Below, in pieces: positions 1,131 through 64,000 of a DNA stretch of 64,000 nucleotides. The notes under the pieces are model-generated. The model did no database searches. It was not told where the DNA came from and saw only the letters and a list, made by a program, of their open reading frames with translations. Every line of letters starts with the position of its first letter. Within the stretch, counting starts at the first letter, position 1. Both the position numbers and the translations under genes were made by a program. Source of the DNA: an uncultured Bacilli bacterium (GTDB lineage: Bacteria; Bacillota_I; Bacilli_A; RF39; UBA660); NCBI GenBank assembly GCA_934096945.1, contig CAKOND010000004.1:18569-82568 (forward strand), in the 5' to 3' direction.

Positions 1131-1191
1131 TGTTGATAATTTGGGTAAAAAAAATACAGAATATTAAAGAAAAATAGTAAATAAATAGTGG

Positions 1192-1200
1192 TTATCCACA
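1192..1200 (+). promoter_or_regulatory. Perfect DnaA box TTATCCACA in the dnaA-dnaN spacer, next to a very AT-rich stretch (oriC part 2-like)
   Basis: Exact 9-mer consensus in gtggTTATCCACAttaat. The surrounding 130-bp spacer is more than 85% AT, a candidate DNA-unwinding element. Confidence 0.55.
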
Positions 1201-1259
1201 TTAATAACACCACTAATAAATAATAATAATTAATAACATAAAGAAAGAAGGAATAAAAA

Positions 1260-2378
1260 ATGAAATGGACAATTGAAAAAAATGTAATTTTAGAAGCTTT
1301 AAATAATGTTACTAAAGCTTTAAGTCAAAGGACTACAATACCAGTACTTAATGGGATAGTATTTGATGTTAGTGAAAAGGGAATAGAACTACTTGCTAGT
1401 GATTCAGAACTTACTATAAAGGTTCTTATTAGTCATGAAAATATAAAGATGCTTGAAGGAAAAGGTAAAATTATTATTCAAAGTAAATATTTTGTTGATA
1501 TGATAAGAAAGATGCCTAGTGAGAATATCGATTTTGAAGTTGAAGATAACTTAAAGATTAAAATTAGTACACCAAATAACCAATATAGATTAAATTGCTA
1601 TAATCCAAGTGATTATCCAAATATAAATATAGAAAAAAGTGATGATGCTATTAATATTAAATCTGAAGTTTTAAGAGAAATAATTAATCAAACTTCTTAT
1701 GCATTATCAACTCAAGAAGTAAGACCTTTATTAACAGGTATTAACTTTAAAATAAATGGAGATATTTTAGAATGTATTTGTACTGATTCTTACAGATTAT
1801 CTAAGAAAAATATTAAGTTAGATGTACCTAGTAGTAAACAAGTTAATATTGTTATTCCAGGAAGAAGTATTACTGAACTTGAAAAAATTATAGCTGAAGA
1901 TGATAATGTGGAAATCTATGTATTTACTAACAAAATATTATTTGTTTATAAAAATATTTATGTTCAAAGTAATTTACTTAGTGGAAGTTATCCAGAAACT
2001 AGTCACTTTATTCCAAATGACTTTGCATATATGATAAATTTAAATATGAAAGAATTCTATGATGCAGTTGATAGAGCAGCATTACTTGCTCAAAATAAGG
2101 AAAAAAATATTATAAAGATGCATATTCAAGATAAAGATATGGTTATTACATCAACAAGTAATGAATTAGGTAATGCTGAAGAAAAATTACATATTGATAG
2201 TAATAATAAAGAAAAGATTGAAGTATCTTTCTCAAGTAAGTTTATGATGGATGCATTAAAGGTTATTAAAGAAGAGAATATTTTACTTCTTCTTAATACT
2301 GATGATAAGCCAATTTTGATTAAACCAGTTACTGATGAATCACTTACTGAGCTTATTTTACCTATTAAAACATATTAA
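1260..2378 (+). CDS. dnaN: DNA polymerase III beta sliding clamp
   Basis: 372 aa. Position right after dnaA and sequence typical of beta clamps (three-domain repeat, C-terminal LILPIK-like tail). RBS gaaggaa precedes the ATG. Confidence 0.92.
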   Translation: MKWTIEKNVILEALNNVTKALSQRTTIPVLNGIVFDVSEKGIELLASDSELTIKVLISHENIKMLEGKGKIIIQSKYFVDMIRKMPSENIDFEVEDNLKIKISTPNNQYRLNCYNPSDYPNINIEKSDDAINIKSEVLREIINQTSYALSTQEVRPLLTGINFKINGDILECICTDSYRLSKKNIKLDVPSSKQVNIVIPGRSITELEKIIAEDDNVEIYVFTNKILFVYKNIYVQSNLLSGSYPETSHFIPNDFAYMINLNMKEFYDAVDRAALLAQNKEKNIIKMHIQDKDMVITSTSNELGNAEEKLHIDSNNKEKIEVSFSSKFMMDALKVIKEENILLLLNTDDKPILIKPVTDESLTELILPIKTY

Positions 2379-2479
2379 TTTTAAGAAAAATTGAACAAAT
2401 TTGCGTTTGTTCTTTTTTTTCGACAAATTTTGCACTTTCTTTGTGGTAAGATAACAAATTAATGAAGGAGGTGCTCATT

Positions 2480-2902
2480 TTGTTTAAAATTGATAAGGAA
2501 GTTCTTATGATTGATTATGACGGGCTTAATACAAATGTTACAACTACTTATGGCGATGTTGTTTTTAGGGGAAATAATATTAAAAATATTTTAAATGAAA
2601 GCTGCATTAGTTTTGGAAGTAGTTTAAATGGCAGAATAAAGGGAAGTAAATGGGCTTTAAAAAGTAAATATAAGCTGCCAGTTGTAGTTAGTGAGAAAGA
2701 AAAATTAGTTTTTTTTCCTGTTAAAGAGATGGGAAGAGAAATATGGGTTAATTTTGATATGATAAAAGAAGTAAAAAAGAATAAAAATGTGGTAAAAGTA
2801 GAGTTTAAAAATGGTTTAAAAGTGGATATAAATGTAAGTTATACAATTTTTAATAACCAAGTTTTGAAAGCTAGTAGATTGTGGATAATTTTTTTAACAT
2901 AA
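2480..2902 (+). CDS. ComK-family competence transcription factor-like protein
   Basis: Matches ComK in blocks: CISFGSSLNGRIKGS versus CRFFGSSYAGRKAG, KLVFFPV versus QIFLFPT, VSYTIFNNQVLKASRLW versus ISYNSFENQVYRTAWL. The likely start is TTG at 2480, 8 nt after RBS AAGGAGG. The ORF-track start at 2462 is inside the RBS. Confidence 0.6.
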   Translation: MFKIDKEVLMIDYDGLNTNVTTTYGDVVFRGNNIKNILNESCISFGSSLNGRIKGSKWALKSKYKLPVVVSEKEKLVFFPVKEMGREIWVNFDMIKEVKKNKNVVKVEFKNGLKVDINVSYTIFNNQVLKASRLWIIFLT

Positions 2903-3024
2903 ATGTGAAGAAAAATGTAACTTTTTCTTTAAAATGGGGCTAGATTGTGATATAATTAATATGTGTATAGGTATACCAAAATAGCTTTAATTTTTAATAT
3001 AGGGCTACTTAAGGGGGTAAATTA

Positions 3025-6040
<3,016 letters not shown>

Positions 6041-6049
6041 GAGGTTAAT

Positions 6050-8545
6050 ATGGATCATAGTAGAGATAGATTACAAGAAAATAATATTGTAAGTGAAATT
6101 GAATCGTCTTTTATTGAGTATTCAATGAGTGTTATTATTTCCAGAGCTTTGCCGGATTTAAGAGATGGTTTAAAGCCAGTTCATAGAAGAATTATTTATG
6201 ATATGTTAGAAAATGGTTTGACACCAGATAAAAAACATCGTAAAAGTGCTACGATAGTTGGGGATGTTATGGGGAAATACCACCCACATGGTGACTCATC
6301 AATTTATGATGCTATGGTAAGAATGGCACAAGACTTTAACTATCGTTATTTACTTGTTGATGGACATGGTAACTTTGGTAATATTGAGTATCCTAGAGCT
6401 GCTGCTTATCGTTATACTGAAAGTAAACTTGCTAAGATATCAATGGAACTTTTAAGAGATATCAACAAAAATACTGTTAATTTTGTACCAAATTATGATG
6501 ATTCTACGGTAGAACCTGAAGTTTTACCTTCAAGATTTCCAAATATTTTAGTTAATGGAACAATGGGGATTGCTGTTGGTATGGCAACAAATATTCCACC
6601 ACATAATTTAGGTGAAGTTGTTGATGGTTGTATTGCTTATATTGATAATCCTGATATTACTACGGAAGAGTTAATGCAACATATTAAGGGTCCAGATTTT
6701 CCAACTGGTGGCATTATTTTAGGTAATTCTGGAATAAAAAAAGCTTATGAAACTGGTAGAGGTTCAATAACTATTAGAAGTAAGGCAACAATTGAAGAAA
6801 AAAATGGAAGACATTATATTGTTATTGAAGAAGTTCCTTATGGTGTTAATACACTTGATTTAAAACAAAAAGTTGCAGATTTAGTACATAACAAAGTACT
6901 TGAAGGTATTACTGATTATCATACTGATTTAAAAGATGGTATTAAAATAACTATAACGCTTAAGAAAGATGCTAATCCTCAAGTAGTTTTAAATAATTTA
7001 TATAAGCATACGGCTTTTCAAACAACTTTTGGTATTATTTTCTTGATGCTTGATAAAGGTGTACCTAGAACTTTAGGTTTAAAAGATATAATTAGTAAAT
7101 ATGTAGATTATCAACAAGAAGTTATTATTAGAAGAACTCAATTTGAATTAGATAAAGCTGAAAAGAGAGTACATATCTTAGAAGGTTATAAGATTGTGTT
7201 TGATAATTTAGATGAAGTTATTAAAATTATTAAAGAATCTAAGGCTGATGGAGAAGCTAAATCTAAGTTAATGGCACGTTTTGGATTAACTGAAGCTCAA
7301 ACTGATAATATTTTAGAAATGAAATTACGTCGTTTAACGGGTCTAGAACGTGAAAAGATTGAAGAAGAACTAAATACACTCAGAATCGAAATAGAACGCT
7401 TACGTGGTATTTTAGCGGATAATAATAAGGTGTTAGGCATCATTAAAGATGAAATGACTGAAATTAAAAATAAATATGGTGATGAAAGACGTACTAAGAT
7501 TGATATGACTGCGGTTGATTATATTGAAGATGAATCTTTAATTCCAGAAGAAAATATATTGGTAGTACTTACTAACAAAGGTTATATTAAGAGAACTACT
7601 GCTGATACATTTAAGTCACAAAATAGAGGTGGCGTTGGAATTAAGGGAATGTCTACGAATGATGAAGACTTTGTTGAACACATGATTAACTTATCAACAC
7701 ATGATTATATCTTGTTCTTCACTGATAAAGGTAAAGTATATAGACTTAAAGGTTATGAAATTCCTGAGTTTTCACGTCAATCTAAGGGTATTCCAATTGT
7801 AAATTTACTTCAAGTTGAAAAAGATGAAAGAGTTAATGCTGTTATTCAAATAAGTCGTGAAGAGAATAGTAAATACTTGTTATTTGCAACTGAATCTGGT
7901 GTTGTTAAGAAGACTTTAATTAGTGAATTTGATAATATTAGAAATAGTGGTAAGATTTGTATTTCTTTAAGAGAAAACGATAAACTTATTGGTGTTAAGA
8001 AGACTTCTGGTAATGATTTAGTGCTTCTTGGTAGTGATAGTGGTAGAATGGTTAAGTTTAATGAAGATGAAATCAGAGTTATGGGACGTACTGCTTCAGG
8101 TGTTCGTGGTATTTCACTAGATGGAAGTAAATGTATTTGTTCTGAAATTGTTAAAGAAGATGATACTATTCTTCTTGTAACTGAAAAAGGTTATGGTAAA
8201 CAAACTAAGGTTAGTGAATATCGTCAAACTAGAAGAGGTTCTAAAGGTGTTAAAGCCATGAATATTACTGAAAAGAATGGTAATTTAGTAAGTGTTAAGA
8301 TTGTTCATGAAGGCAAAGAACTTGTTATCATGACAAACTCTGGTATGACAATGAGAATGCCACTTGATCAAATATCTGTTCTTGGTAGAGTTACGCAAGG
8401 TTTAAGACTTATTAATTTAAAAGATAATCAAAAGGTATCTACGATTAGTTTAGTAGATAAACTAGAAGAAGAACCTTCTCAAGAAAGCATAGAACAAGGT
8501 GAAAATGTTGCTCAAAATGAATCAGAAGCAACTGAAAATATTTAA
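6050..8545 (+). CDS. gyrA: DNA gyrase subunit A
   Basis: 831 aa. Active-site region [14 protein letters not shown] (catalytic Tyr), the QRDR-like [13 protein letters not shown], a C-terminal beta-pinwheel repeat region and an acidic tail. Confidence 0.93.
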
Positions 8546-23413: not shown

Positions 23414-24877
23414 ATGAAAAAAAATATTTTGTTAGTTGGGTTATTATTATTAGTATTATTCATGCCAAATAAGGTATTTGCATTAAGTAATGATGAGATT
23501 ATTAATATAATAGCTACTGATGGAAAAAATGCGGTATTTAAAATGAAACAACCTACTAGTGAAAAGGAAGCAAAAGCAAATTTAAACAATTATGTTAATT
23601 ATGTATTACAGAATTATGGATATTTTGCAGATATTATATGTGATAATGAAACATATTCTAAATGTGATTTAAATATTTATAGTAGTGATTATGAATCATC
23701 TTATGATGCAAATCTTAAAGATTATGTAACTAAAAAGGGCTGGACAAGTAAGTATGCTATTAATGTAACTTATGATGCACCGAAAGACAATGAAAGTGTT
23801 AATAAAATTATAGACAATATTGCTGGCCTTCCTGAAGAGTGGGATAGAAATGATGTTCCTAAATATTATATTTTATCAGACTTATCCTTGATAAATTATC
23901 ATTATAATTACTCAAAATATTTAGATGATTTTGGAGGTTCTAAAACAGCATTAAAATATAGTTCTTTAAATAACTTTCTTTATGGAACTAATATAGAAGT
24001 TTATTTGGATCTTGTTACTGGAGAAGATGATCCAGAAAATATGATATACTTTGGATTTGGGCCGATGAGCATATTTTATGATGGGTATTTATATGCCACA
24101 AAAAATGAAGGTATTTATTTAAGGCAATTATTATATATTCCAGAAGATACTCCGGATACACCAGAAGATTATGTGAAAGCTGCACAAAAGAGAATTAATG
24201 ATTATTTAAAAAATGATTTTGTTAAAGTTACTTATGGAGGTAAAATTGCTGATATAAGACCTAATGAAGAAGATGTTTATATACCAATAAAAACAGATGG
24301 AAATTATTATGTTATTCATTTTGGTGATGATATGTTTATGTTTTATATTGTAAAAGGAAATGATGAACAATTAAAAGCGCCTGTATACTTAAGTAGTGAT
24401 ATAAATACAAATATAGAAGTTGAAACTAATGATTCATCAGTGCCTTTAGATACAACAATTAAAGTCAAAGATGTTACTTCTGAATTTACAAAAGAAATGA
24501 TTGGAACAGATAACTTTGTTTCTTATGATATTAAATTATATTCTAATAGTTTAGCAGCACACGTTGAAAAACTTGATTCTGGAACATTTGTTGTAAAAAT
24601 ACCTATACCAGAGATGCTAAATGGTAAAAAATTAATTGTTTATTATTTTGATGAGGATAATAATAAAATATCCTATGATGTTACCATAAAAAATGGGTTT
24701 GCTGAATTTAATACTAATCATTTTAGTGTTTATACTTTAGCTGAATACGAAGAAAATGTTAATGAAATTATTGAAAATCCTTCTACATCAGATAATATAT
24801 TATTGTATTTTACTTTAAGTTTATTAAGTGTTGTAGGAATATTTCTTGTTTCAAAAAAAATAATTAAAAATAATTAA
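23414..24877 (+). CDS. Secreted or cell-surface protein with signal peptide and C-terminal hydrophobic anchor
   Basis: The N-terminus (MKKNILLVGLLLLVLFMPNKVFA) is a signal peptide. The C-terminus (NPSTSDNILLYFTLSLLSVVGIFLVSKKIIKNN) has a hydrophobic helix plus a basic tail, sorting-signal-like but without LPXTG. Confidence 0.6.
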   Translation: MKKNILLVGLLLLVLFMPNKVFALSNDEIINIIATDGKNAVFKMKQPTSEKEAKANLNNYVNYVLQNYGYFADIICDNETYSKCDLNIYSSDYESSYDANLKDYVTKKGWTSKYAINVTYDAPKDNESVNKIIDNIAGLPEEWDRNDVPKYYILSDLSLINYHYNYSKYLDDFGGSKTALKYSSLNNFLYGTNIEVYLDLVTGEDDPENMIYFGFGPMSIFYDGYLYATKNEGIYLRQLLYIPEDTPDTPEDYVKAAQKRINDYLKNDFVKVTYGGKIADIRPNEEDVYIPIKTDGNYYVIHFGDDMFMFYIVKGNDEQLKAPVYLSSDINTNIEVETNDSSVPLDTTIKVKDVTSEFTKEMIGTDNFVSYDIKLYSNSLAAHVEKLDSGTFVVKIPIPEMLNGKKLIVYYFDEDNNKISYDVTIKNGFAEFNTNHFSVYTLAEYEENVNEIIENPSTSDNILLYFTLSLLSVVGIFLVSKKIIKNN

Positions 24878-53524: not shown

Positions 53525-53649
53525 TTTACTATTCCCCCTTCTTGAGTAATATATATTATAGTCTTTTTTTATAAAAAGTCAAGCTTTTTAATTGTAAGGC
53601 ACTTGACAATTTTTAATTAATGTATTAATATTGTATGGCGGTGGTGGAT

Positions 53650-54102
53650 ATGGAAGATAGATTGCTTTATAATCTAAATTTGTTAAATAAGCTTATTGCG
53701 AGAGAATTTATCTGTAATAACAAGGATTTGTTTAATGGTGAACCCAGTGCAACTCAGATGATTATTATGGATTATATTTTAAATCATCAAGATGAAGATA
53801 TTTATCAAAGAGATTTAGAAGAAGTGCTTCACTTAAGGAGAGCCACTGTTTCTGGAGTTCTTCAAACTATGGAAAAACATGGACTAGTTGAAAGAGTTTT
53901 GTGTGAGAAAGATGTTAGATGTAAGAAAATTATTTTAAAAGAAAAAGCTAAGAAAATGTTTGATATGAAAAGAATGGAATTCTATAAAATGGAAGAAGTT
54001 GTTAAAGAAGGCTTAAGTGAAGAAGAAATTGAAATATTTTGTCATATAATAAAAAGAATGCAAAATAATATAAATAAATATGCAAATAGAAGAAAGGATT
54101 AA
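53650..54102 (+). CDS. MarR-family transcriptional regulator
   Basis: Winged-HTH block QRDLEEVLHLRRATVSGVLQTMEKHGLVERV. Start probably ATG 53650 (MEDRLLY) after GGTGGTGGA. Directly upstream of the ABC exporter pair. Confidence 0.8.
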   Translation: MEDRLLYNLNLLNKLIAREFICNNKDLFNGEPSATQMIIMDYILNHQDEDIYQRDLEEVLHLRRATVSGVLQTMEKHGLVERVLCEKDVRCKKIILKEKAKKMFDMKRMEFYKMEEVVKEGLSEEEIEIFCHIIKRMQNNINKYANRRKD

Positions 54103-54104
54103 TT

Positions 54105-55868
54105 ATGTTTAAATTATTAAAAAGTTTTAGAAAAAAAGAATGGTTAATTACTATAGTTAGCACCTGTTTAATAGTAATGCAAGTATGGCTTGAATTAAAG
54201 ATGCCTGATTATATGTCAAAAGTTACTATTTTAGTGCAAACTGAAGGAAGTAAAATGTCCGACATTTTAATAAATGGTGGATATATGCTTTTGTGTGCTT
54301 TTGGTAGCTTAGTTGGAGCTGTTATTGTTGGCTATTTAATTGCTATATTATCTGCAGGGTTTTCTAAGAGACTTAGAGGTAAACTATTTAGAAAAGTGGA
54401 AGAAATGTCCATGAGTGAAGTGAAAGATTTTTCAACTAATAGTTTGATTACGAGAACTACGAATGATATTACACACGTAGAAATGTTTGTGGGATTTGGC
54501 TTACAATTATTAATTAAAGCTCCGGTTACAGCTGTTTGGGCTATAACTAAAATACTTAATAAGAGTTGGGAATGGAGTATGGTAACAGCTGTTGCTGTAG
54601 TTATTTTACTTGTTGTAATTGGGATTTTAACAATTATTGTGCTTCCTAAATTTAAGATTGTACAAAAGTTAACAGATAAATTAAATGAAGTTACAAGAGA
54701 AAATTTAACTGGTATAAGAGTTGTTAGAGCTTTTAATGCTGAAGATTATCAAGAAAAGAAGTTTAAAAATGTAAATGATGATTTAACTAATTTACAATTA
54801 TTTAATCAAAAATCAATGTCAATTATGTCACCAGTTATGTATTTAATCATGTATATGTTAACACTTATTATATATTTTATAGGTGCTTACCTTATTAAAG
54901 ATGCAATGATGGCTGATAAAATAGCATTATTTGGTGATATGGTAGTATTTTCATCTTATGCAATGCAAATTATTATGTCATTCTTGATGCTTGCTATGAT
55001 ATTTATGATTTTACCAAGAGCAGAGGTTTCTGCATCAAGAATTAATGAAGTACTTGATACCGATATTAGTGTTAAAGATGGTAATGTAGAAACTAAAAAA
55101 GAAGTTGGTACAATTGAATTTAAAAATGTATCATTTAAGTATCCTGATGCTGAAGAATATGTTCTAAGAAATATATCATTTAAAGCAAATAAAGGAGATA
55201 CTGTGGCATTTATTGGTTCAACAGGTTCAGGTAAATCAACTTTGGTTAATTTAGTTGTAAGATTTTACGATGTAACTGAAGGAGAAATACTTGTTGATGG
55301 TATAAATATTAAAGATTATAAACTTGAATATTTATATAAATTAATTGGTTATGTTCCTCAGAAGGTAGTTATGTTTAATGGAACAGTTAATTCTAATATT
55401 GCTTATGGGGAAGCTAAAGAAGAAATAACTGATAGTAGAATAAAGGAAGCAGCAAAAGTTGCACAAGCAGATGATTTTGTGTCAAAAATGGATGATGGAT
55501 ATGCATCTCATATAGCTCAAGGCGGCACGAATGTTTCTGGTGGTCAAAAACAAAGACTTGCTATTGCACGTGCCATAGCTAAAAATTCGGAAATATATAT
55601 TTTCGATGACTCATTTTCTGCTTTAGACTACAAAACTGATGCTGTTCTTCGTAAAGAGCTAAAAAAATATATGAAAGACGCAACTAGTTTAATTGTTGCT
55701 CAAAGAATTGGTACAATAATGAATGCTGATAAAATAATAGTTCTTGATAATGGAACATCTGTTGGTGTTGGTACACATGAAGAACTATTAAAGAGTTGTG
55801 AAGTTTATAAAGAAATTGCTTTATCACAACTTTCAAAGGAGGAATTAGATAATGCCAAGACCAAATAG
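54105..55868 (+). CDS. ABC exporter, fused permease-ATPase, subunit 1 of a heterodimer
   Basis: Six TM helices, then Walker A GSTGSGKST, signature VSGGQKQRLAIARA and Walker B IYIFDDSFSALD. Confidence 0.88.
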   Translation: MFKLLKSFRKKEWLITIVSTCLIVMQVWLELKMPDYMSKVTILVQTEGSKMSDILINGGYMLLCAFGSLVGAVIVGYLIAILSAGFSKRLRGKLFRKVEEMSMSEVKDFSTNSLITRTTNDITHVEMFVGFGLQLLIKAPVTAVWAITKILNKSWEWSMVTAVAVVILLVVIGILTIIVLPKFKIVQKLTDKLNEVTRENLTGIRVVRAFNAEDYQEKKFKNVNDDLTNLQLFNQKSMSIMSPVMYLIMYMLTLIIYFIGAYLIKDAMMADKIALFGDMVVFSSYAMQIIMSFLMLAMIFMILPRAEVSASRINEVLDTDISVKDGNVETKKEVGTIEFKNVSFKYPDAEEYVLRNISFKANKGDTVAFIGSTGSGKSTLVNLVVRFYDVTEGEILVDGINIKDYKLEYLYKLIGYVPQKVVMFNGTVNSNIAYGEAKEEITDSRIKEAAKVAQADDFVSKMDDGYASHIAQGGTNVSGGQKQRLAIARAIAKNSEIYIFDDSFSALDYKTDAVLRKELKKYMKDATSLIVAQRIGTIMNADKIIVLDNGTSVGVGTHEELLKSCEVYKEIALSQLSKEELDNAKTK

Positions 55869-58116
55869 AGAAGTAGCAAAAGCTAAAGACTTTAAGGGTG
55901 CTATAAAAAGATTAATTAATGAGTTATCTGAATTTAAAAAATTAACTATAATTGCATTAGTTTTAGCAGCTTTAGGTGCTATTCTTACTATAGTAACACC
56001 TGATATTTTGTCTAATTTAACTGATGAAATATCAAACGGTTTAGTTATGAATAAAGATAATTTTGAAAAAATTACTAAAGAAGTGACTAATAGTTTGAAT
56101 GAGGAAAATATTAGTAAAGTTATTAAAATAGACTTTAGTGAAAAAAATATAGGCAGTATTATGATGGATAATGGTATTTCTTCAGAAGATAAACAAAGTT
56201 TTCAAAAAATACTTGAGGAAATGCAAAGTAATCCTGATAGTGGAATGAAGTTAATTGCCAGTGTTCCGGATAGTATTTTAAGTAAACTTGTTGTAAGTTA
56301 TACAGAAGATACAATTAAATTTATTAAGAGTTTAAGTGGTAATGTAGAAGTTCCAGATAGTATTGCTAAGGAGTTATTTCACGAATTTGAAATCGATGGC
56401 GTTAAAATAAGTGTAAATGATCAAAAAGAATTTTTGAAAATTGTAAGTAGATTGAATGAAAATATGGATGCAACTAGTATATATGCAAAAGTAGATGAAA
56501 TGCCTAGTTCTATAAAAACACTTGTTGAACCATATATGAATATAGATAGAATAAAAAATATAGCTATAGTTTTAGTCACTATTTATTTAATTAGTGCAGT
56601 ATTTACTTATTTTGAGTCAATACTTATGTGCGATGTTTCAAATAATTTTGCAAGAAAACTACGTGGTAATATTTCAAGTAAAATAAATAAGTTGCCACTT
56701 AAATATTTTGATAAACATGCAATTGGGGATACCTTATCAAGAGTAACAAATGATGTTGATATAATTGCTCAATCTATGAACCAATCATTATCAACTTTGG
56801 TTAGCACAATTACATTATTTGTGGGTACTACAATTATGATGTTTGTAACAAATTGGGTTATGGCAATTACTGCAATACTTGCGAGTTTATTTGGGTTTGT
56901 ATTTATGGCAGTTGTTTTAGGTAAATCACAAAAATATTTTGTGGCTAAACAAAAAGAACTTGGGGCTTTAAATGGTCATATTGAAGAAGTATATTCAGGG
57001 CTTAATGTTGTTAAAACATATAATGGTCAAAAAATATCAAATGGAAAGTTTGAAGAATTAAATGATAAATTATATAAAGCTAATTGGAAGAGTGAGTTTT
57101 TATCTGGACTTATGATGCCAATGATGAATTTTATCGGTAACTTTGGCTATGTTGCTGTGTGTGTCGTTGGAGCATTACTTGCTTTAAATGGTCATATTAG
57201 TTTTGGAGTAATCGTAGCATTTATTGTTTATGTAAGGTTGTTTGTTTCTCCGCTTTCTCAAATTGCTCAAGCTATGACTAGTTTACAATCAACTGCAGCA
57301 GCTAGCGAAAGAGTATTTGAATTCTTAGATGAAAAAGAAATGCTTGATGAAAGTAAATTAACAAAATTCTTGGATAAAAAAGAAGTAAAAGGTAATATTG
57401 AATTTAAAAATGTTGAATTTAAATATGATGGTAATGAAACTCCAACAATTAAGAACTTTAGTGCTAAAGCAAAAGCAGGCCAAAAGATAGCTATTGTGGG
57501 ACCTACAGGTGCTGGTAAGACTACGATGGTAAATTTACTTATGAAGTTCTATGGTATTAATAGTGGAGAAATACTTATTGATGGTGTTTCTACGAAAGAA
57601 TTAACTAGAGAAAATGTTCATAGTTTATTTACAATGGTTCTTCAAGATACTTGGGTGTTTAATGGCACTGTCAGGGATAATATTGTTTATAATACTGAAA
57701 ATGTAACTGATAAAGAAGTAGAAAGTGTTTGTAAAACCGTTGGACTTGACCATTTCATTAAAACCTTACCTGATGGATATAATACTATATTAAGTGATAA
57801 TGATTCTGTTTCTGCAGGTCAAAGACAACTTTTAACTATTGCTCGTGGTATGTTGCAAGATGCACCATTCTTAATTTTGGATGAAGCTACAAGTAATGTT
57901 GATACGAGAACTGAAGAATTAGTGCAAAAAGCAATGGATAAGTTAACTCATGGTAAAACTTCATTTATAATTGCTCACAGATTATCAACAATAAAAAATG
58001 CTGATTTAATACTTGTTATGAATAATGGTAATATAATTGAACAAGGAAATCATGAAGAACTTATGAAACAAAAAGGCTTTTATGCGGATTTGTATAATTC
58101 CCAATTTAAGTTATAA
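55852..58116 (+). CDS. ABC exporter subunit 2, with an approximately 200-aa insertion between TM1 and TM2
   Basis: Walker A GPTGAGKTT, signature VSAGQRQLLTIARG, Walker B LILDEATSNVD. A hydrophilic segment (about residues 50-235) lies between the first two TM helices. Confidence 0.85.
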   Translation: MPRPNREVAKAKDFKGAIKRLINELSEFKKLTIIALVLAALGAILTIVTPDILSNLTDEISNGLVMNKDNFEKITKEVTNSLNEENISKVIKIDFSEKNIGSIMMDNGISSEDKQSFQKILEEMQSNPDSGMKLIASVPDSILSKLVVSYTEDTIKFIKSLSGNVEVPDSIAKELFHEFEIDGVKISVNDQKEFLKIVSRLNENMDATSIYAKVDEMPSSIKTLVEPYMNIDRIKNIAIVLVTIYLISAVFTYFESILMCDVSNNFARKLRGNISSKINKLPLKYFDKHAIGDTLSRVTNDVDIIAQSMNQSLSTLVSTITLFVGTTIMMFVTNWVMAITAILASLFGFVFMAVVLGKSQKYFVAKQKELGALNGHIEEVYSGLNVVKTYNGQKISNGKFEELNDKLYKANWKSEFLSGLMMPMMNFIGNFGYVAVCVVGALLALNGHISFGVIVAFIVYVRLFVSPLSQIAQAMTSLQSTAAASERVFEFLDEKEMLDESKLTKFLDKKEVKGNIEFKNVEFKYDGNETPTIKNFSAKAKAGQKIAIVGPTGAGKTTMVNLLMKFYGINSGEILIDGVSTKELTRENVHSLFTMVLQDTWVFNGTVRDNIVYNTENVTDKEVESVCKTVGLDHFIKTLPDGYNTILSDNDSVSAGQRQLLTIARGMLQDAPFLILDEATSNVDTRTEELVQKAMDKLTHGKTSFIIAHRLSTIKNADLILVMNNGNIIEQGNHEELMKQKGFYADLYNSQFKL

Positions 58117-58141: not shown

Positions 58142-58279
58142 AAAATGTAATAATTTATTTTTTTTACATAATGAAAGCATTTAAAACTAAGTATTTTTAT
58201 GATATACTGGAGTTGAATTTAAATTTGAAAAAACTATATATAGGTGTTATAATAATTCCTAATTTAGGAGGTGACTTTT

Positions 58280-58981
58280 TTGCATAATAAAATTTTGGTA
58301 GCAGAAGATGATATGGATATAGTAGAACTTCTTAAACTTTATTTAGAAAGTAATGGTTTTGAAGTGACATCAACATATGATGGACTTGAAGCTTTGGATG
58401 CTTTTAAAAAAGGTAATTACGATATTATAATTGCAGATTTAATGATGCCCGGTTTAAATGGTTATGAACTTATTAAAATTGTAAGAGAAACAAGTAATAT
58501 TCCAATTGTCATTGCATCTGCTAAAAATATGGATAGCGATAAGGTTCTGGGACTTGATATAGGTGCTGATGCTTATATAACTAAACCATTTAATCCTTTG
58601 GAATTAGTTGCTTATGTTAAAGCACTTCTTCGTAGATATTATGAATTTAAAAGTTCTAATAATGAAATTAATACCTTAAATGTTGGTGAACTTTCTCTTG
58701 ATTTAAGCAAATACATCTTTATGAAAAATAATAAAATTGTGCCTCTTACATCGACTGAAATTAAAATACTGGCAATGATGATGAAGTCACCTGGTAAAGT
58801 ATTTACGAGGAGCCAAATTTATGAATGTATTAATGGTAATTTTTATGATACTGATGATAATACTATGATGGTACATATTTCAAATATAAGGGGGAAAATT
58901 GAGGATAATCCTGCAAAACCAGAGTATATAAAAACAGTTAGGGGGTTAGGTTATAAGCTTGAAAACAAAGAAGAGTTATAG
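58280..58981 (+). CDS. OmpR-family response regulator
   Basis: Receiver domain (ILVAEDD…IIIADLMMPG) plus a winged-helix trans_reg_C domain. The likely start is TTG 58280, 7 nt after RBS GGAGGTG. Confidence 0.85.
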   Translation: MHNKILVAEDDMDIVELLKLYLESNGFEVTSTYDGLEALDAFKKGNYDIIIADLMMPGLNGYELIKIVRETSNIPIVIASAKNMDSDKVLGLDIGADAYITKPFNPLELVAYVKALLRRYYEFKSSNNEINTLNVGELSLDLSKYIFMKNNKIVPLTSTEIKILAMMMKSPGKVFTRSQIYECINGNFYDTDDNTMMVHISNIRGKIEDNPAKPEYIKTVRGLGYKLENKEEL

Positions 58982-60548
58982 TTTTAGCAAATATATTATT
59001 ATTCAATTTGCTATTTACACATTAATTATTTTAGGTGTTACTTTATTAACATATTTATCAATTAATTGGAGGCTTAACAATAGTTTTTTAGTATTGGATG
59101 ATTTTCTTCTTTATAAAGAAAAACTTGAGTATGAAGATTATGATGGCATTCCGATGGCTAAGTTTCCTGGATGTGATTTTGCCATATATGATGAAAATAA
59201 TGAACTTATTTATACCACAGATGGTGGTGTAAATGATATTGTCGATGGTGATGACTTAGAGTTTGTTAATGATTATAGTGGAACATATTATTATAATATT
59301 TTTAATTACAAAGAAAAAAATAGAGATAAGATTTATAAAATTTATAAAACTTTATATGACACTGAAAGTAATGAAGAAATTGTGGTTGGAAATGCTAAAT
59401 TAAATGAAGACTTGGAAATAGTTGATGGCAATCTTTTTAATGAGAAAAATAGTTTAACTGAAAGAGAACTTGATTTATTAAATGGGTATTATAATGATGA
59501 ACAAATGGTAGAAAAATATGAATTTACTACATCTTATGATTATGATACTGAAATTGGTGGGAAAAGAACTTTGCTTTTTATGTCACCGACATTTACATCA
59601 GAGAGCTATGATACTGCGGTTGCTGATGCTAATAAAGTGTGGTTTATTTCTATTCCAATTTTAATAATAATTATTATAATTGAAACTTATATATTTAATC
59701 GTAGAGTCAAAAAAAGTTTAAAAGAGTTGAATAGAGTTATTTCATCTTATGAAAATGAAGAGATAATTGTTAAAGATACTAATTTACCAAAAGAATTTGA
59801 TGAAGTTGCGGAAAGTTTTGAAAATTTAATGGAAAAGTTAAAGAAATCTAATGAAGAAAAAATGAAAATTTATGAAGATAAACAAAGGTCTATTGCTAAT
59901 TTATCTCATGATTTGAAAACCCCCCTTACAGTTATTAGTGGTTATTCGAAGGCATTTTTAGATGATTTAGTACCAGATAATAAGAAAAGACGATATATGG
60001 AAAGCATCAATAAAAAAGCGCTTGTTGCAACAGATGCTATTGACTCATTGTTTTTATATACACATATGAATAATTCCGAGTATAACTTATGTAGAGAAAA
60101 AATTGATATAGTAACATTTACTAAAGAATATTTAGCGGAAAAATATAATGAAATTGAGTCTGCTGGTATGTTTTTAGAAGTAGATATTGAAGAGAGTAAA
60201 ATAATGTTTGACGTTGATAAAAACGCTTTCAGAAGAATATATGAGAATATAATAAATAATTCTATTAAATACAATAAAAAGGGTACAAAGATATATTTTA
60301 AAATGTGGAAAGATAAAACATTAAATATAGTAATCGGGGATAATGGTATTGGAATTGATAAAGAAATAAAGGATAAATTATTTGAGCCATTTGTTACAAG
60401 TAATAAAGCTAGGACATCTGGTGAGGGTACTGGACTAGGACTTGCAATTGTTAAAAACTTTGTGGAACTTCATGATGGTGAAATAGTTTTAGTAAGTAAA
60501 ACACAAAGAAAAATGAATACCGAGTTTTTAATGAGATTTAAAATTTAA
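58959..60548 (+). CDS. Sensor histidine kinase with a large extracytoplasmic domain
   Basis: Two TM helices flank an extracellular domain of about 180 aa. H-box SHDLKTPLT. HATPase_c motifs (N box, GDNGIGI, GTGLGLAIV). Translationally coupled to the response regulator. Confidence 0.85.
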   Translation: MKTKKSYSFSKYIIIQFAIYTLIILGVTLLTYLSINWRLNNSFLVLDDFLLYKEKLEYEDYDGIPMAKFPGCDFAIYDENNELIYTTDGGVNDIVDGDDLEFVNDYSGTYYYNIFNYKEKNRDKIYKIYKTLYDTESNEEIVVGNAKLNEDLEIVDGNLFNEKNSLTERELDLLNGYYNDEQMVEKYEFTTSYDYDTEIGGKRTLLFMSPTFTSESYDTAVADANKVWFISIPILIIIIIIETYIFNRRVKKSLKELNRVISSYENEEIIVKDTNLPKEFDEVAESFENLMEKLKKSNEEKMKIYEDKQRSIANLSHDLKTPLTVISGYSKAFLDDLVPDNKKRRYMESINKKALVATDAIDSLFLYTHMNNSEYNLCREKIDIVTFTKEYLAEKYNEIESAGMFLEVDIEESKIMFDVDKNAFRRIYENIINNSIKYNKKGTKIYFKMWKDKTLNIVIGDNGIGIDKEIKDKLFEPFVTSNKARTSGEGTGLGLAIVKNFVELHDGEIVLVSKTQRKMNTEFLMRFKI

Positions 60549-60570
60549 TAAGTAATTTGTTGCTAAAATA

Positions 60571-60604
60571 AAACAAGTACATACATGTATGTACTTGTTT
60601 TTAT
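60571..60604 (+). terminator. Strong rho-independent terminator
   Basis: Perfect 30-bp palindrome AAACAAGTACATACATGTATGTACTTGTTT, then TTTTAT. Confidence 0.75.
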
Positions 60605-60725
60605 ATTATAATAAATATATTTTATAAAGTGGCTAAAAGTCAAATTCAATTTCTTAATAAAAATTAAGATTTGGTTAAGAAATAATTTATTATATTAATG
60701 TATAATTATTTTGAGGTAAAAATAT

Positions 60726-62210
60726 ATGAAAAACGTTTTGGAATATTTAGAAAAAATTAGTAATGATAATAAAGTAATTGATAAAAATGGAAGTATTACT
60801 TATAAAGACTTGCAAGTGGTTAGTAAAAAAATAGGTAGTGGACTTGCTAAGTATGTTAAAAATAATGACCCTGTTCCAGTTTATATGGAAAAAGGAATTT
60901 CTTGTCTTGAAGTTTTTATGGGAAGTTTGTATGCTGGTGGTTTTTATAGTTTACTTAATGCTGGGCTTCCTAAAATGAGGCTTGAACAAATAATTAGTGT
61001 TTTAGATGTAGATTATGTAGTAACTGATAAAGAACATTTGGAAAATGCTAAAGAATTTTTTCCTGATAAGAAATTAATACTTTATGAAGACTTGGTTAAC
61101 AGTAAAATAGATGAAGAATTGCTTGCTGGTATTAGGGCTAAAAAACTTGATGTTGATCCTGTTTATGCAAATTTTACAAGTGGTTCAACAGGTGTACCTA
61201 AGGGTGTTGTAGTTGGAAATCGTTCAATTATTGATTTTATAGATAATTTTACAAGTACCTTTGGAATTAATGAAACAGATATTATTGCTAATCAAGCGCC
61301 ATTTGATTTTGATGTTTCTGTTAAAGATATTTATCCAGCACTAAAAACAGGGGCAACACTTGTTATTGTTCCTAAAGAATTATTTTCAAGACCTGCGGAA
61401 CTTATTGATTTTTTGGTAGAACATAAGGTTACAACGATGACTTGGGCAGTATCTGCACTTTGTTTAATTTCAACATTTCATGGTTTAGATTATAAAGTGC
61501 CTGAAACAGTTAAAAGAATTATGTTTAGTGGTGAAGTTATGCCAATGAAACATTTGAAAGAATGGATGAAACATTTGCCAAATGCAACATTTGTTAATTT
61601 GTATGGACCAACAGAAATTACATGTAATTGTACTTATCACATTATTGATAGAAATCGTGAATATGAAAAAATACCTGTCGGTATACCATTTAATAATGAA
61701 GATGTTTTCTTATTAGATGAAAATAATAAATTAGTTGAAAGTAACGGAATAAAAGGGGAAATATGTGTTAGAGGTAGTGCACTTGCACTTGGTTACTATA
61801 AAAATAAAGAACAAACTGATAAAGCTTTTGTTAGAAATCCATTAAATGATAAGTATATTGAATATATTTATAGAACTGGAGATCTAGGTTATTATGAAAA
61901 TAATGACTTGTATTTTGGGGGAAGAAAAGACTTTCAAATAAAATATATGGGACATAGAATTGAACTTGAAGAAATAGATAAAGCTATTGGTGGTTTTGAT
62001 GGTGTAGAAAGAGTTTGTTCTATATTTAAAGAAGAAAAAAGTAGACTTTATGCCTTTTATATTGGTGACATTGAAGTAAAAGAATTACATGAAAAGTTAT
62101 CTAAAGAATTACCTATATTTATGATACCTAGTAAATTTGTTAAATTAGAACAAATGCCTTTAACTAAGAATGGTAAGATTGATAGAAAGAAATTGGAGGA
62201 ATTAATATGA
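60726..62210 (+). CDS. DltA-like amino acid--carrier protein ligase (adenylation enzyme)
   Basis: AMP-binding core TSGSTGVPKG, YGPTE, and GDL…KIRG-like C-terminus (GRKDFQIKYMGHRIELEEI). 494 aa, about the size of DltA. Confidence 0.8.
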   Translation: MKNVLEYLEKISNDNKVIDKNGSITYKDLQVVSKKIGSGLAKYVKNNDPVPVYMEKGISCLEVFMGSLYAGGFYSLLNAGLPKMRLEQIISVLDVDYVVTDKEHLENAKEFFPDKKLILYEDLVNSKIDEELLAGIRAKKLDVDPVYANFTSGSTGVPKGVVVGNRSIIDFIDNFTSTFGINETDIIANQAPFDFDVSVKDIYPALKTGATLVIVPKELFSRPAELIDFLVEHKVTTMTWAVSALCLISTFHGLDYKVPETVKRIMFSGEVMPMKHLKEWMKHLPNATFVNLYGPTEITCNCTYHIIDRNREYEKIPVGIPFNNEDVFLLDENNKLVESNGIKGEICVRGSALALGYYKNKEQTDKAFVRNPLNDKYIEYIYRTGDLGYYENNDLYFGGRKDFQIKYMGHRIELEEIDKAIGGFDGVERVCSIFKEEKSRLYAFYIGDIEVKELHEKLSKELPIFMIPSKFVKLEQMPLTKNGKIDRKKLEELI

Positions 62211-63385
62211 TAGATAGTAAAACTATTGAAAGTATTGGAACACCATTTTATGTATTTGATATTGATGTTTTAAAAAATAGAATAAATTATCTTAAAAGTA
62301 TGATGCCAGAAAATGTTCATTTATGTTTTGCAATGAAAGCTAATCCATTTGTGGTTAAAGAAATAGAGGATGCTATAGAAAAGTATGAAATATGTTCTTA
62401 TGGTGAATGGAATATTGCAAATGAGCTCGATGTAGCACATGAAAAAATGGTTATTTCAGGTGTTTATAAAGATGAAGACAGTATGATAGACATAATTAAT
62501 CATTATAAACATGGTGAAGTTATTACAATTGAATCATTAAATCAAATAAAATTAGTTGATAAAATAACTAAAGATAAAAGAGCTCTAGTAGATGTAATTT
62601 TAAGACTTACAAGTGGTAATCAGTTCGGTATGAGTGAAGAAGAAATTATATCTATTTTGGAAAATAGATCAAAATATAATTATTTAAATATAATGGGTAT
62701 TCAATATTTTTCGGGAACTCAAAAAAAATTATCAAGAAGAATTATAAAAGAACTTGAATATGTTGATGACTTTGTTCAAAAATTAAAAAATGAATTAGGT
62801 TTTGTAACTGAAGAATTAGAGTTTGGACCTGGTTTTCCAGTTATGTATTTTGAAGCAGAAACAGATTTTGATGAAAATACATACTTAATGGAAATTGCTG
62901 ATAAGATAAAAAATTTGAAATATCAAGGTCATATTACAATGGAACTTGGAAGAAGTATTGCAGCATCATGTGGAAGTTATTATACTAAAGTTGTTGATAA
63001 AAAAACAAATAAAGAAGGTAATTTTGCTGTTTTAGATGGTGGAATGAACCATATTGTGTATTATGGTCAAATGATGGCAATGAAAAAGCCAATGTTAGAT
63101 GTAATTCCTAGAAGAAGTGGAAATGAAGAAAATTGGAACTTAGTTGGAGCATTATGTACAATTAATGATTTAATTGTTAAAGGATTACCTGTTAATGGTT
63201 TAGAGCTTGGCGATGTTTTTGTTTTTAAAAATACTGGTGCTTATGCTATGACTGAAGGAATTAGTTTATTCTTAAGTCGTGATTTACCTAAAGTTTTATT
63301 TGTAAAAGATGGTAAAATAGAAGTGGTTAGAAGTAATATTCAAACTTATAAATTAAATATGCCATTTAAAGGAGGTGAAAATTAA
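62207..63385 (+). CDS. Fold-type III PLP-dependent enzyme of the Orn/DAP/Arg decarboxylase family (divergent)
   Basis: PLP-Lys context FAMKANPF (DapDC YAVKANSN). Gly-rich loop EFGPGF. The ELGRS motif (EPGR). The C-terminal KNTGAYAM block. The CESGD-equivalent is CTINDL and the HxGS motif is replaced by LTSGNQ. Confidence 0.7.
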   Translation: MIDSKTIESIGTPFYVFDIDVLKNRINYLKSMMPENVHLCFAMKANPFVVKEIEDAIEKYEICSYGEWNIANELDVAHEKMVISGVYKDEDSMIDIINHYKHGEVITIESLNQIKLVDKITKDKRALVDVILRLTSGNQFGMSEEEIISILENRSKYNYLNIMGIQYFSGTQKKLSRRIIKELEYVDDFVQKLKNELGFVTEELEFGPGFPVMYFEAETDFDENTYLMEIADKIKNLKYQGHITMELGRSIAASCGSYYTKVVDKKTNKEGNFAVLDGGMNHIVYYGQMMAMKKPMLDVIPRRSGNEENWNLVGALCTINDLIVKGLPVNGLELGDVFVFKNTGAYAMTEGISLFLSRDLPKVLFVKDGKIEVVRSNIQTYKLNMPFKGGEN

Positions 63386-63615
63386 TGGAAAAATTAATAG
63401 AAATATTAGAAGATTTAAATCCAGAAGTTGATTATAATACATGTACTAATTTAATAGATGGACATTATTTAGATTCACTTGCAATTTTATCACTTGTTGC
63501 TGAAATTGAAGAAGAATTTGATGTTGTAATTCCAACAGTTGAAATAATTCCTAGTAATTTTAACTCTGCTCAAAGTTTATGGGCTTTAATAGAAAAATTA
63601 AAGGAAGAAGATTAG
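63385..63615 (+). CDS. D-alanyl-carrier-protein-like small acyl carrier protein
   Basis: 76 aa. Phosphopantetheine-attachment context GHYLDSLAILSL. Size and position as for DltC. Confidence 0.75.
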   Translation: MEKLIEILEDLNPEVDYNTCTNLIDGHYLDSLAILSLVAEIEEEFDVVIPTVEIIPSNFNSAQSLWALIEKLKEED

Positions 63616-63616
63616 T

Positions 63617-64000
63617 ATGCAATATTGTAGTTTAGTTTATTTGGCTGCTTTTTTGCCAATTACACTATTAATATATGCTTTAACTAATAAGAAGAAAAGA
63701 TGGCTTGTTTTACTTATAGCAAGCTATATTTTCTTTTTATCTTTAAGTGGTAAATTAATTGTGTATTTACTATTTTCTACACTTTCAATTCATCATTTTG
63801 GGTTATGGCTTGATAGATTAAATAAAGATAGAGATAAAGAAGTAGAGTTAAATAAGGAAAATAAAAAAGAAATAAAAGAATTATATAAGAAAAGAATGGG
63901 GAGAGTAGTGTTTCTTGCAGTACTTATTCATATTGGTTTGTTAGTATGTTTAAAATATACAGGCTTTTTTGGCGAAAATATTAATAATTTATTAGAAATT
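63617..64000 (+). CDS. MBOAT-family membrane O-acyltransferase (DltB-like), 3' end beyond the window
   Basis: Open frame from ATG 63617 (MQYCSLVYLAAFLPITLLIYALTNKKKRWLVLLIASYIFF…) to the window end, with no stop. The DltB/AlgI-type N-terminus is hydrophobic with conserved spacing. Confidence 0.6.
   Translation, partial: MQYCSLVYLAAFLPITLLIYALTNKKKRWLVLLIASYIFFLSLSGKLIVYLLFSTLSIHHFGLWLDRLNKDRDKEVELNKENKKEIKELYKKRMGRVVFLAVLIHIGLLVCLKYTGFFGENINNLLEI

Follow-up and report, generated by a model that had tools for sequence, protein, structure and literature searches.

A conserved five-gene MBOAT-SGNH cassette with an embedded BtrK-like decarboxylase: a candidate pathway for envelope aminoacylation in gut Firmicutes

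Teichoic acid D-alanylation is a main Gram-positive means of tuning surface charge, resistance to cationic peptides, and interaction with the host, and in several Firmicutes the dlt genes are under the control of an envelope-related two-component system. In proteobacteria, exopolysaccharide loci associated with exosortase A (PEP-CTERM) encode an uncharacterised ligase paired with a pyridoxal 5'-phosphate (PLP) decarboxylase; we know of no such system that includes an MBOAT-SGNH pair. BtrJ, the ligase of the butirosin enzymes BtrI/BtrJ/BtrK, is an ATP-grasp ligase and not an adenylation enzyme. The locus considered here lies at the downstream end of a stretch of 64,000 nucleotides from an uncultured Bacilli bacterium of the RF39 lineage (assembly GCA_934096945.1, contig CAKOND010000004.1, positions 18,569 to 82,568 of the forward strand; hereafter the window), and encodes a stand-alone ligase, a PLP decarboxylase homologue, a small carrier protein and an MBOAT protein, followed in related genomes by an SGNH protein. 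In the Dlt pathway the FxYxxF acyl-shuttle motif is carried by the microprotein DltX, whereas PatA-type MBOATs have the motif fused C-terminally on two extra helices, and the other MBOAT/SGNH pathways use acyl-CoA and hence have no carrier protein (Anderson et al. 2025, PMC12148441). For the vicenistatin pathway, VinN is described as placing 3-methylaspartate on the carrier VinL, where it is decarboxylated by the PLP enzyme VinO only once the thioester has formed; FlvN acts in the same way as VinN, with aspartate (PMC11284099). BtrK is an L-glutamyl-[BtrI acyl-carrier protein] decarboxylase which turns Glu-S-BtrI into the gamma-aminobutyric acid (GABA) thioester GABA-S-BtrI; together with SbnH, AcsE, MccE, and FigC it was placed in one alanine-racemase-fold decarboxylase clade with the diaminopimelate and D-ornithine decarboxylases, and these five enzymes act on amino acids that are already conjugated via their distal group (Li et al. 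2020, PMC7857480). The reading favoured here, to which we give somewhat better than an even chance, is that the locus encodes a five-gene, carrier-dependent MBOAT-SGNH pathway which transfers an amino-acyl group onto an envelope polymer and is set apart from D-alanylation by a decarboxylation on the carrier.

In the pathway as proposed, the ligase would adenylate an amino acid with a second carboxylate, most likely L-aspartate or L-glutamate, and would join it in thioester linkage, by way of the side-chain carboxyl, to the phosphopantetheine on Ser31 of the carrier. The BtrK-like PLP enzyme would then take the alpha-carboxyl off the tethered amino acid to leave beta-alanyl- or gamma-aminobutyryl-S-carrier; both the side-chain tethering and the alpha-decarboxylation on the carrier are suggested by analogy with VinN/VinL/VinO, FlvN, and BtrK. 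From the carrier the acyl group would be taken up by the DltB-like MBOAT and moved through the membrane to the tyrosine in this protein's C-terminal P-x-Y-A-x-F motif, and the catalytic serine of the membrane-anchored SGNH protein would then receive it and esterify an extracytoplasmic polymer, for instance a teichoic acid or some other glycopolymer of the wall. These transfers, which start from the carrier, are proposed to follow established Dlt and PatAB chemistry. That many gut Firmicutes and some Coriobacteriia put specifically a beta-alanyl or gamma-aminobutyryl ester, made on the carrier by the PLP enzyme and delivered by an MBOAT using its own tyrosine, on an envelope polymer is put forward more tentatively, as rather less than an even prospect. 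The cassette genes present in the window are the following:

60726..62210, + strand: AMP-binding adenylation enzyme (stand-alone ligase), 494 amino acids; PF00501, E 2e-60
62207..63385, + strand: fold-type III PLP decarboxylase homologue, 392 amino acids; Pfam Orn_Arg_deC_N and Orn_DAP_Arg_deC
63385..63615, + strand: aminoacyl carrier protein, 76 amino acids; PP-binding, 2e-4; phosphopantetheine site Ser31 in LDSL
63617..64000, + strand: DltB-like MBOAT, first 128 codons; reading frame open at the window end, full length of the orthologue 528 amino acids

Together with an upstream response regulator and kinase, these make six co-directional genes on the + strand within 58.2-64.0 kb, and the gene order given in a preliminary description of this DNA (ligase, PLP enzyme, carrier, and MBOAT after a two-component system) was confirmed with all genes in place. 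The start and stop codons of the four cassette genes overlap or nearly touch (ATGA at 62207-62210, TAATG at 63383-63387, and a gap of 1 nucleotide at 63616), so that the four appear to be translationally coupled. When one genome per species was scanned, at least 576 relatives were returned, of which the best 80 were examined; orthologues in these loci were assigned by phmmer comparison of all their open reading frames, and the analyses of the MBOAT and SGNH proteins rest on such orthologues, since the window stops at MBOAT codon 128. The order ligase, PLP enzyme, carrier, MBOAT, SGNH was kept in 66 of the 67 species loci with enough flanking sequence, a recurrence far beyond chance. Because it is kept across phyla, the PLP gene belongs integrally to the cassette and is not the unrelated insertion that the preliminary description had considered as an alternative.

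At least 80 species-level genomes carry the cassette, and several hundred probably do. The holders belong to the Clostridia, Bacilli, and Coriobacteriia (Oscillospiraceae, Lachnospiraceae, Ruminococcus bromii, Acetobacterium, uncultured Bacilli, and Collinsella), and the named ones include R. bromii ATCC 27255, Acetobacterium carbinolicum, Catenibacillus scindens, Flintibacter porci, Pseudoflavonifractor, Agathobaculum, and Collinsella. Protein identity to the window was 98% for a rumen metagenome-assembled genome (MAG) labelled Erysipelotrichaceae (RUG14232), 93% for a 'Tenericutes' MAG (UMGS1410), and 76-80% for MAGs bearing the labels uncultured Bacilli, Agathobacter sp., Firmicutes CAG:460, and Clostridium CAG:609. 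Looked up by exact sequence, the PLP protein of the window led only to a contig of 2.2 kb; contigs with PLP proteins 95% and 78% identical to it show the same upstream genes, then a 528-amino acid MBOAT, then a protein of 322-327 amino acids; two loci that are 95-98% identical to the window (L002 and L006) run on in this way into the 528-amino acid MBOAT and the fifth gene, which encodes an SGNH protein of 322 amino acids. In public databases a homologue of the PLP enzyme is named 'diaminopimelate decarboxylase' (JGI), and the fifth protein is a 'hypothetical protein', with one UniRef name beginning 'SGNH/'. A full-text literature search returned neither a description of a cluster of dlt-like, MBOAT, carrier, and PLP-decarboxylase genes nor a report of beta-alanyl or GABA esters on teichoic acids, in keeping with the earlier suggestion that the system is undescribed. 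A megablast search of plasmids with the cassette as query gave no match.

The one exception to the conserved order is locus L008, labelled Agathobacter sp., in which ligase, PLP enzyme, and carrier are 76% identical to those of the window and no MBOAT or SGNH gene follows the carrier (6286-7300); its contig may be chimeric or its cassette degraded. In two MAGs of Oscillospiraceae or Clostridia (L047, 3053-8541; L054, 7310-12779) the order is ligase, PLP enzyme, MBOAT, SGNH, carrier, MBOAT, SGNH, an arrangement in which two MBOAT-SGNH pairs may draw on one loading module and serve two acceptors. One homologue of the SGNH protein (P0321) is listed under Streptococcus suis, and three cassette contigs (L037, L070, and L084) are binned as Muribaculaceae (Bacteroidota), which suggests horizontal transfer or mis-binning.

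The PLP enzyme is assigned to the decarboxylases of the BtrK/SbnH kind, with BtrK as its nearest solved relative by sequence, by profile, and by fold. Among PDB sequences BtrK was the best match (E 3.6e-29), all others, from SbnH (6knh) on, being at 1.6e-20 or weaker; sequence identity to BtrK is only about 22%. A family profile built from 62 of the 281 clusters found at E below 1e-30 among 1.84 billion cluster representatives scored BtrK at 235 bits, SbnH at 199, diaminopimelate decarboxylase (LysA) at 192 or less, and ornithine decarboxylase (ODC) at 78 or less. An AF2 model with a predicted local distance difference test (pLDDT) score of 94 was closest in Foldseek to BtrK (TM 0.89), then to SbnH, and then to LysA, and there was no racemase among its top structural matches. 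The protein has the two-domain fold, both Pfam domains, the PLP lysine, and the catalytic residues of a decarboxylase, and K44 (the PLP lysine), E246, R249, the glycine loop, C317, D321, and Y346 are conserved in the family. Membership of a named equivalog is not indicated: the best NCBIfam match, the exosortase-A-associated decarboxylase TIGR03099, reached 175 bits against a cut-off of 478.45, and the LysA model TIGR01048 reached 165.1 against 297.9. The altered active-site blocks LTSGNQ and CTINDL remarked on in the preliminary description are present at residues 134-139 and 317-322, respectively. In alignments the latter belongs to a C-T-x-x-D pattern shared by the family with BtrK, where LysA has C-E-S-G-D, and a G-I-x-x-[F/Y]-x-G-T-Q block has an aromatic residue where LysA and ODC have histidine. 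The acidic residue that LysA and ODC use for the distal amine (CESGD, C-D) is threonine in this enzyme, as it is in BtrK.

An alanine racemase is not what the gene encodes. PF01168 (Ala_racemase_N) matched with 31 bits over residues 18-195, that is, over the shared N-terminal barrel only, whereas the C-terminal part is the decarboxylase sheet domain; a split alanine racemase, considered as a possibility at the outset, was ruled out by the full two-domain decarboxylase-family protein with BtrK as its nearest solved relative. Of the two activities first proposed for the PLP enzyme on the loaded amino acid, decarboxylation would most likely take place on the carrier-bound amino acid and not on the free one, and racemisation is unlikely. 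By analogy with BtrK and SbnH, a tethered or conjugated amino acid is proposed as the substrate, in a context in which the carrier gene is adjacent in all loci and in which one homologue (P0256, 488 amino acids) is a natural fusion of the PLP decarboxylase with a C-terminal carrier domain. Conversion of diaminopimelate to lysine on the carrier would be a less likely variant, given the threonine in place of the LysA residue for the distal amine. In another homologue (P0139, 1046 amino acids) the PLP domain is joined to Rib or Ig-like repeats together with a transglutaminase core; this fusion may have arisen artificially, in assembly or in gene calling.

The likeness to the butirosin (BtrI/BtrJ/BtrK) and macrolactam-starter (VinN/VinL/VinO and FlvN) enzymes would extend to the chemistry as a whole, in which an amino dicarboxylic acid is tethered to a stand-alone carrier and, after a PLP enzyme has removed its alpha-carboxyl, remains there as an omega-aminoacyl thioester; with the Vin and Flv systems the cassette also shares a ligase that is an adenylation enzyme. 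The exosortase A systems are alike in that both cassette enzymes match their models, the ligase (TIGR03098) at 161 bits against a cut-off of 592 and the decarboxylase as given above, in both cases far below the cut-off.

The ligase is an adenylation enzyme (TIGR01733, 307 bits) and is not a DltA equivalog, as it fell below the cut-off of both DltA models (TIGR01734, 283.9 against 559.85 bits; NF003417, 297.9 against 476). A family profile searched against the PDB found adenylation domains of non-ribosomal peptide synthetases (NRPSs) and DltA about equally close, at about 300 bits each, so that this route yielded neither a placement as DltA-type or NRPS-type nor a clue to the substrate. More was learnt from the specificity pocket, read from an alignment of 74 orthologues with a GrsA-PheA segment. 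Its ten specificity positions read D-V-K-[I/T/V]-[L/M/I]-S-[L/I/V]-C-C-K, with D196 and K200 of the protein invariant in all 74; seven pocket positions are invariant (Asp235, Val236, Lys239, Ser301, Cys330, Cys331, and Lys517), as are the segments NQAPFDFDVSVKD and EITCNC in an alignment of 33 sequences (A4). Lysine at position 239 is a feature of glutamate-activating domains, and DltA has methionine there. The invariant Lys239 suggests an acidic amino acid as the substrate, with its carboxylate still present when it is loaded, which would favour decarboxylation after loading; it does not tell which of the carboxyls is activated. Also kept is the conserved aspartate, to which the amine of the substrate binds whether the adenylation enzyme acts on alpha- or on beta-amino acids (PMC11284099). 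The pocket, pointed to earlier as a source of information on the ligase substrate, thus yields an amine-binding aspartate and the suggestion of an acidic amino acid.

The same pocket bears on two other accounts of what the PLP enzyme does. The enzyme could act upstream of the ligase, on a free amino acid, and make the ligase substrate (beta-alanine, GABA, or lysine from diaminopimelate), after which the pathway would be Dlt-like; its family shares a clade with the diaminopimelate and D-ornithine decarboxylases, which act on free substrates, and the clustering of the genes does not by itself establish which step comes first. We regard this as unlikely, since the invariant lysine in the ligase would be needless for a substrate that had already lost its carboxylate, the closest characterised relatives, BtrK and SbnH, work on conjugated amino acids, and the carrier-domain fusion exists, while the LysA cut-off was missed and the distal-amine residue is the threonine of BtrK. 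Alternatively, the PLP enzyme could catalyse another reaction on the tethered group, such as beta-decarboxylation of an alpha-linked aspartyl-S-carrier to alanyl-S-carrier or an epimerisation, so that the decoration would be an alpha-amino acid such as alanine. Asp235 and Lys239 together are what would be expected of a domain activating the alpha-carboxyl of glutamate or aspartate, and a free amine, which an alpha-aminoacyl thioester offers, suffices for PLP; set against this, the catalytic residues of an alpha-decarboxylase are all kept, the nearest relatives are alpha-decarboxylases, and no enzyme of the fold-type III decarboxylase family is known to us to perform such chemistry, which makes this account quite improbable.

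For the remaining steps, decarboxylation on the carrier would hand its product to a transfer module that is related to, and distinct from, that of D-alanylation. The carrier is not a DltC equivalog (NF003464, 30 bits against a cut-off of 68; TIGR01688, 17 against 52), its Ser31 is invariant in 33 orthologues, and the best solved relatives of its family profile are the D-alanyl carrier proteins 8jf2 and 6bug (DltC of DltB-DltC complexes). The MBOAT, represented by the orthologue in L002, belongs to the MBOAT family (PF03062, 1.7e-15, 57.6 bits against a cut-off of 27) and is not a DltB equivalog, its sole NCBIfam match being DltB TIGR04091 at 162.7 bits against 375. All 77 full-length orthologues (526-545 amino acids) end in (D)P-[I/M/L]-Y-[A/V]-x-[F/Y] with the tyrosine invariant, a pattern that matches the tyrosine acyl-shuttle motif of PatA-type MBOATs and that would make it the putative shuttle. 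No plausible DltX-like small open reading frame was found between the kinase and ligase genes, presumably since the MBOAT C-terminus itself bears the shuttle motif. The fifth protein had no DltD match and no Pfam family, and searches of Pfam, NCBIfam, and PDB sequences gave nothing usable for it; a fold prediction (pLDDT 92) showed an N-terminal helix followed by an SGNH domain whose fold lies nearer to those of PatB, OatA, and GDSL esterases than to that of DltD. Its block I (G58-D59-S60) and block V (D262 and H266) are invariant, and the protein is predicted to be a membrane-anchored SGNH partner with a Ser-His-Asp triad on the outside of the membrane. Where dltD or dltX had originally been looked to downstream of the MBOAT, there is therefore an SGNH gene which is no DltD orthologue, and a DltX would not be needed.

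With Dlt the cassette shares a stand-alone ligase that loads a small carrier, a DltB-like MBOAT, an anchored SGNH protein as the last transferase, and a tyrosine shuttle motif, and control by an envelope-related two-component system is plausible in both; it differs in the PLP decarboxylase gene between ligase and carrier, in a longer MBOAT (about 528 amino acids) with a fused shuttle in place of the DltX microprotein, in the PatB/OatA-like SGNH fold, and in the invariant lysine of the ligase pocket. With PatA/PatB (and also AlgI and WssH) it shares an MBOAT bearing its own C-terminal x-x-Y-x-x-F motif and a separate SGNH partner, whereas systems of the PatA/AlgI class use acyl-CoA without a carrier and every cassette encodes a ligase and a carrier (PMC12148441). 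As judged from these motifs and family assignments, the cassette would combine the donor logic of Dlt with the shuttle architecture of PatA. Ordinary D-alanylation, with the PLP gene either an unrelated passenger or an alanine-racemase-like supplier of D-alanine, is hard to reconcile with this and is very improbable indeed. Although Dlt proteins are among the best named matches of ligase, carrier, and MBOAT, and Ala_racemase_N matches the barrel of the PLP enzyme, the Dlt equivalog cut-offs were all missed widely, DltX and a DltD family match are lacking, the PLP gene is kept with coupled translation in 66 of 67 loci and encodes a decarboxylase sheet domain with BtrK as nearest relative, and the ligase pocket has an invariant lysine against the methionine of DltA. 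The core of the preliminary description, a dlt-like aminoacylation system in which an embedded PLP enzyme alters the loaded group, is supported.

The acceptor could also be other than a wall polymer: the chemistry might be the same up to the carrier and the group then pass to a membrane glycolipid, a protein, or a secreted or natural-product scaffold. Trios of ligase, carrier, and PLP decarboxylase are otherwise known from antibiotic biosynthesis, and the Btr, Vin, and Flv enzymes feed antibiotic assembly lines in Bacillus and actinomycetes, whereas the cassette product would go to an MBOAT-SGNH module. Downstream of the trio, the VinN/L/O/M/K starter cassettes have another adenylation enzyme, an acyltransferase, and a polyketide synthase (PKS), and the loci studied here have MBOAT and SGNH; no PKS or NRPS gene was seen beside the cassette in the window or in the annotated loci. 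As the trio is always paired with an MBOAT and an anchored SGNH protein, a module known to acylate extracellular polymers, and as the cassette is spread over what are probably hundreds of gut Firmicutes and is not strain-specific, such an acceptor is quite improbable. If the proposed transfer to a wall polymer is correct, a second, chemically distinct charge-modifying pathway would exist alongside D-alanylation, and the surfaces of abundant gut commensals, the holders including Ruminococcus bromii, Agathobaculum, Flintibacter, Acetobacterium, and Collinsella, would bear a decoration that nobody has looked for. PLP decarboxylation on a carrier would then extend from antibiotic biosynthesis to envelope biology, and the cassette would bridge the carrier-protein-donor and fused-tyrosine-shuttle classes of MBOAT-SGNH systems, which were kept separate in the 2025 paper (PMC12148441).

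In the last step proposed, the adjacent OmpR-type two-component system would activate the cassette promoter through a box of three direct repeats. The features concerned lie upstream of the ligase gene:

58271..58981, + strand: OmpR/VanR-type response regulator; Pfam Response_reg 5e-28, Trans_reg_C 1.4e-24
58959..60548, + strand: sensor histidine kinase; Pfam HisKA 2.2e-10, HATPase_c 1.1e-22
60570..60601, + strand: terminator-like hairpin followed by a T-run; 14-bp stem, T-rich tail (pattern scan)
60653..60679, + strand: three direct repeats, putative response-regulator box; 10-11 bp periodicity; CTTAATAAAAATTAAGATTTGGTTAAG
60701..60706, + strand: candidate -10 hexamer TATAAT of the cassette promoter (read off the sequence)

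The response regulator has an alternative start, TTG at 58280, which gives the 233-amino acid form called in orthologues; its best NCBIfam matches are of the VanR/MtrA/YycF type, all below cut-off, and that of the kinase is of the VanS type, far below cut-off. The two genes overlap by 23 nucleotides, and the kinase has about 190 amino acids between two hydrophobic, predicted membrane segments (judged by eye). A hairpin and a spacer of 178 nucleotides separate the kinase gene from the ligase gene, terminator-like sites numbering 2 in 6 kb where 0.6 would be expected; because of this predicted terminator, the two-component system is taken to be a separate transcription unit. The repeat box reads CTTAAT..TTAAGA..TTAAGA and overlaps the -35 position of the cassette promoter, with TATAAT following 20 bp after its final repeat. 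Within the 64 kb of the window a single site fits the pattern CTTWA-N6-TTWAG-N6-YNAAD, and similar triple repeats stand ahead of the ligase gene in distant taxa having the orthologous two-component system; among 22 related loci with the pattern it is always upstream of the ligase gene and, in L060 and L068, also upstream of the regulator gene. The box is suggestive only as a putative response-regulator binding site. Control of the cassette by the upstream pair, as first proposed, is made plausible by the conserved box at the ligase promoter, although the pair would be transcribed separately. In Agathobaculum (L024, L027, and L036, at about 5900-6440) the two-component system and the ligase gene have between them a low-complexity frame rich in Lys, Ala, Thr, Ser, and Gln, with repeats such as STQKAA, and in several of these loci the repeat-box pattern falls just downstream of the kinase open reading frame and ahead of this frame.

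Several points weigh against the favoured reading of an on-carrier decarboxylation pathway controlled by this two-component system. The ligase code matches no verified code; the comparison took in GrsA and the Glu, Asp, and DltA codes. Lys239 would fit glutamate loaded by its alpha-carboxyl equally well, and a classical decarboxylase would then be without the free alpha-amino acid moiety on which to act; VinN and FlvN are known to adenylate a side-chain carboxyl, and the same is proposed for this ligase by likeness to them. The first position of the MBOAT shuttle motif is occupied by proline and not by phenylalanine. An orthologous two-component system adjoins the cassette in only 25 of the 60 loci whose upstream DNA was long enough (in 20 of them on the same strand, in 5 divergently), and the repeat pattern was built post hoc, from sequences already seen.

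As regards the surroundings of the locus, the window begins with a replication-origin gene set (33-8545: dnaA with its 5' end cut, dnaN, recF, gyrB, and gyrA), nearly every gene in its 64 kb is on the + strand, and GC skew is positive throughout, which places the cassette about 60 kb from oriC on the leading strand. A 487-amino acid open reading frame at 23414-24877 lacks any Pfam match at E below 1e-5. The two-component system is immediately preceded (53635-58116) by genes for a MarR-family regulator and two ABC exporters (ABC_membrane and ABC_tran), which probably pair as a heterodimer. Synteny of the two exporter genes holds in the close clade, and they are also near the cassette in a few distant loci (downstream in L015; upstream in L060, L068, and L082). 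The exporters and the MarR regulator were rejected as members of the system, since they adjoin the cassette in the close clade and a few other loci only; a functional link of the ABC pair to the cassette is possible but weak. About 4 kb downstream of the cassette in L002 (18060-20090) and L004 (16855-18870), and thus beyond the window end, there is a diversity-generating retroelement-like region, with an RVT_1 reverse transcriptase in both loci, a weak match to the bAvd accessory protein in L002, and small flanking open reading frames.

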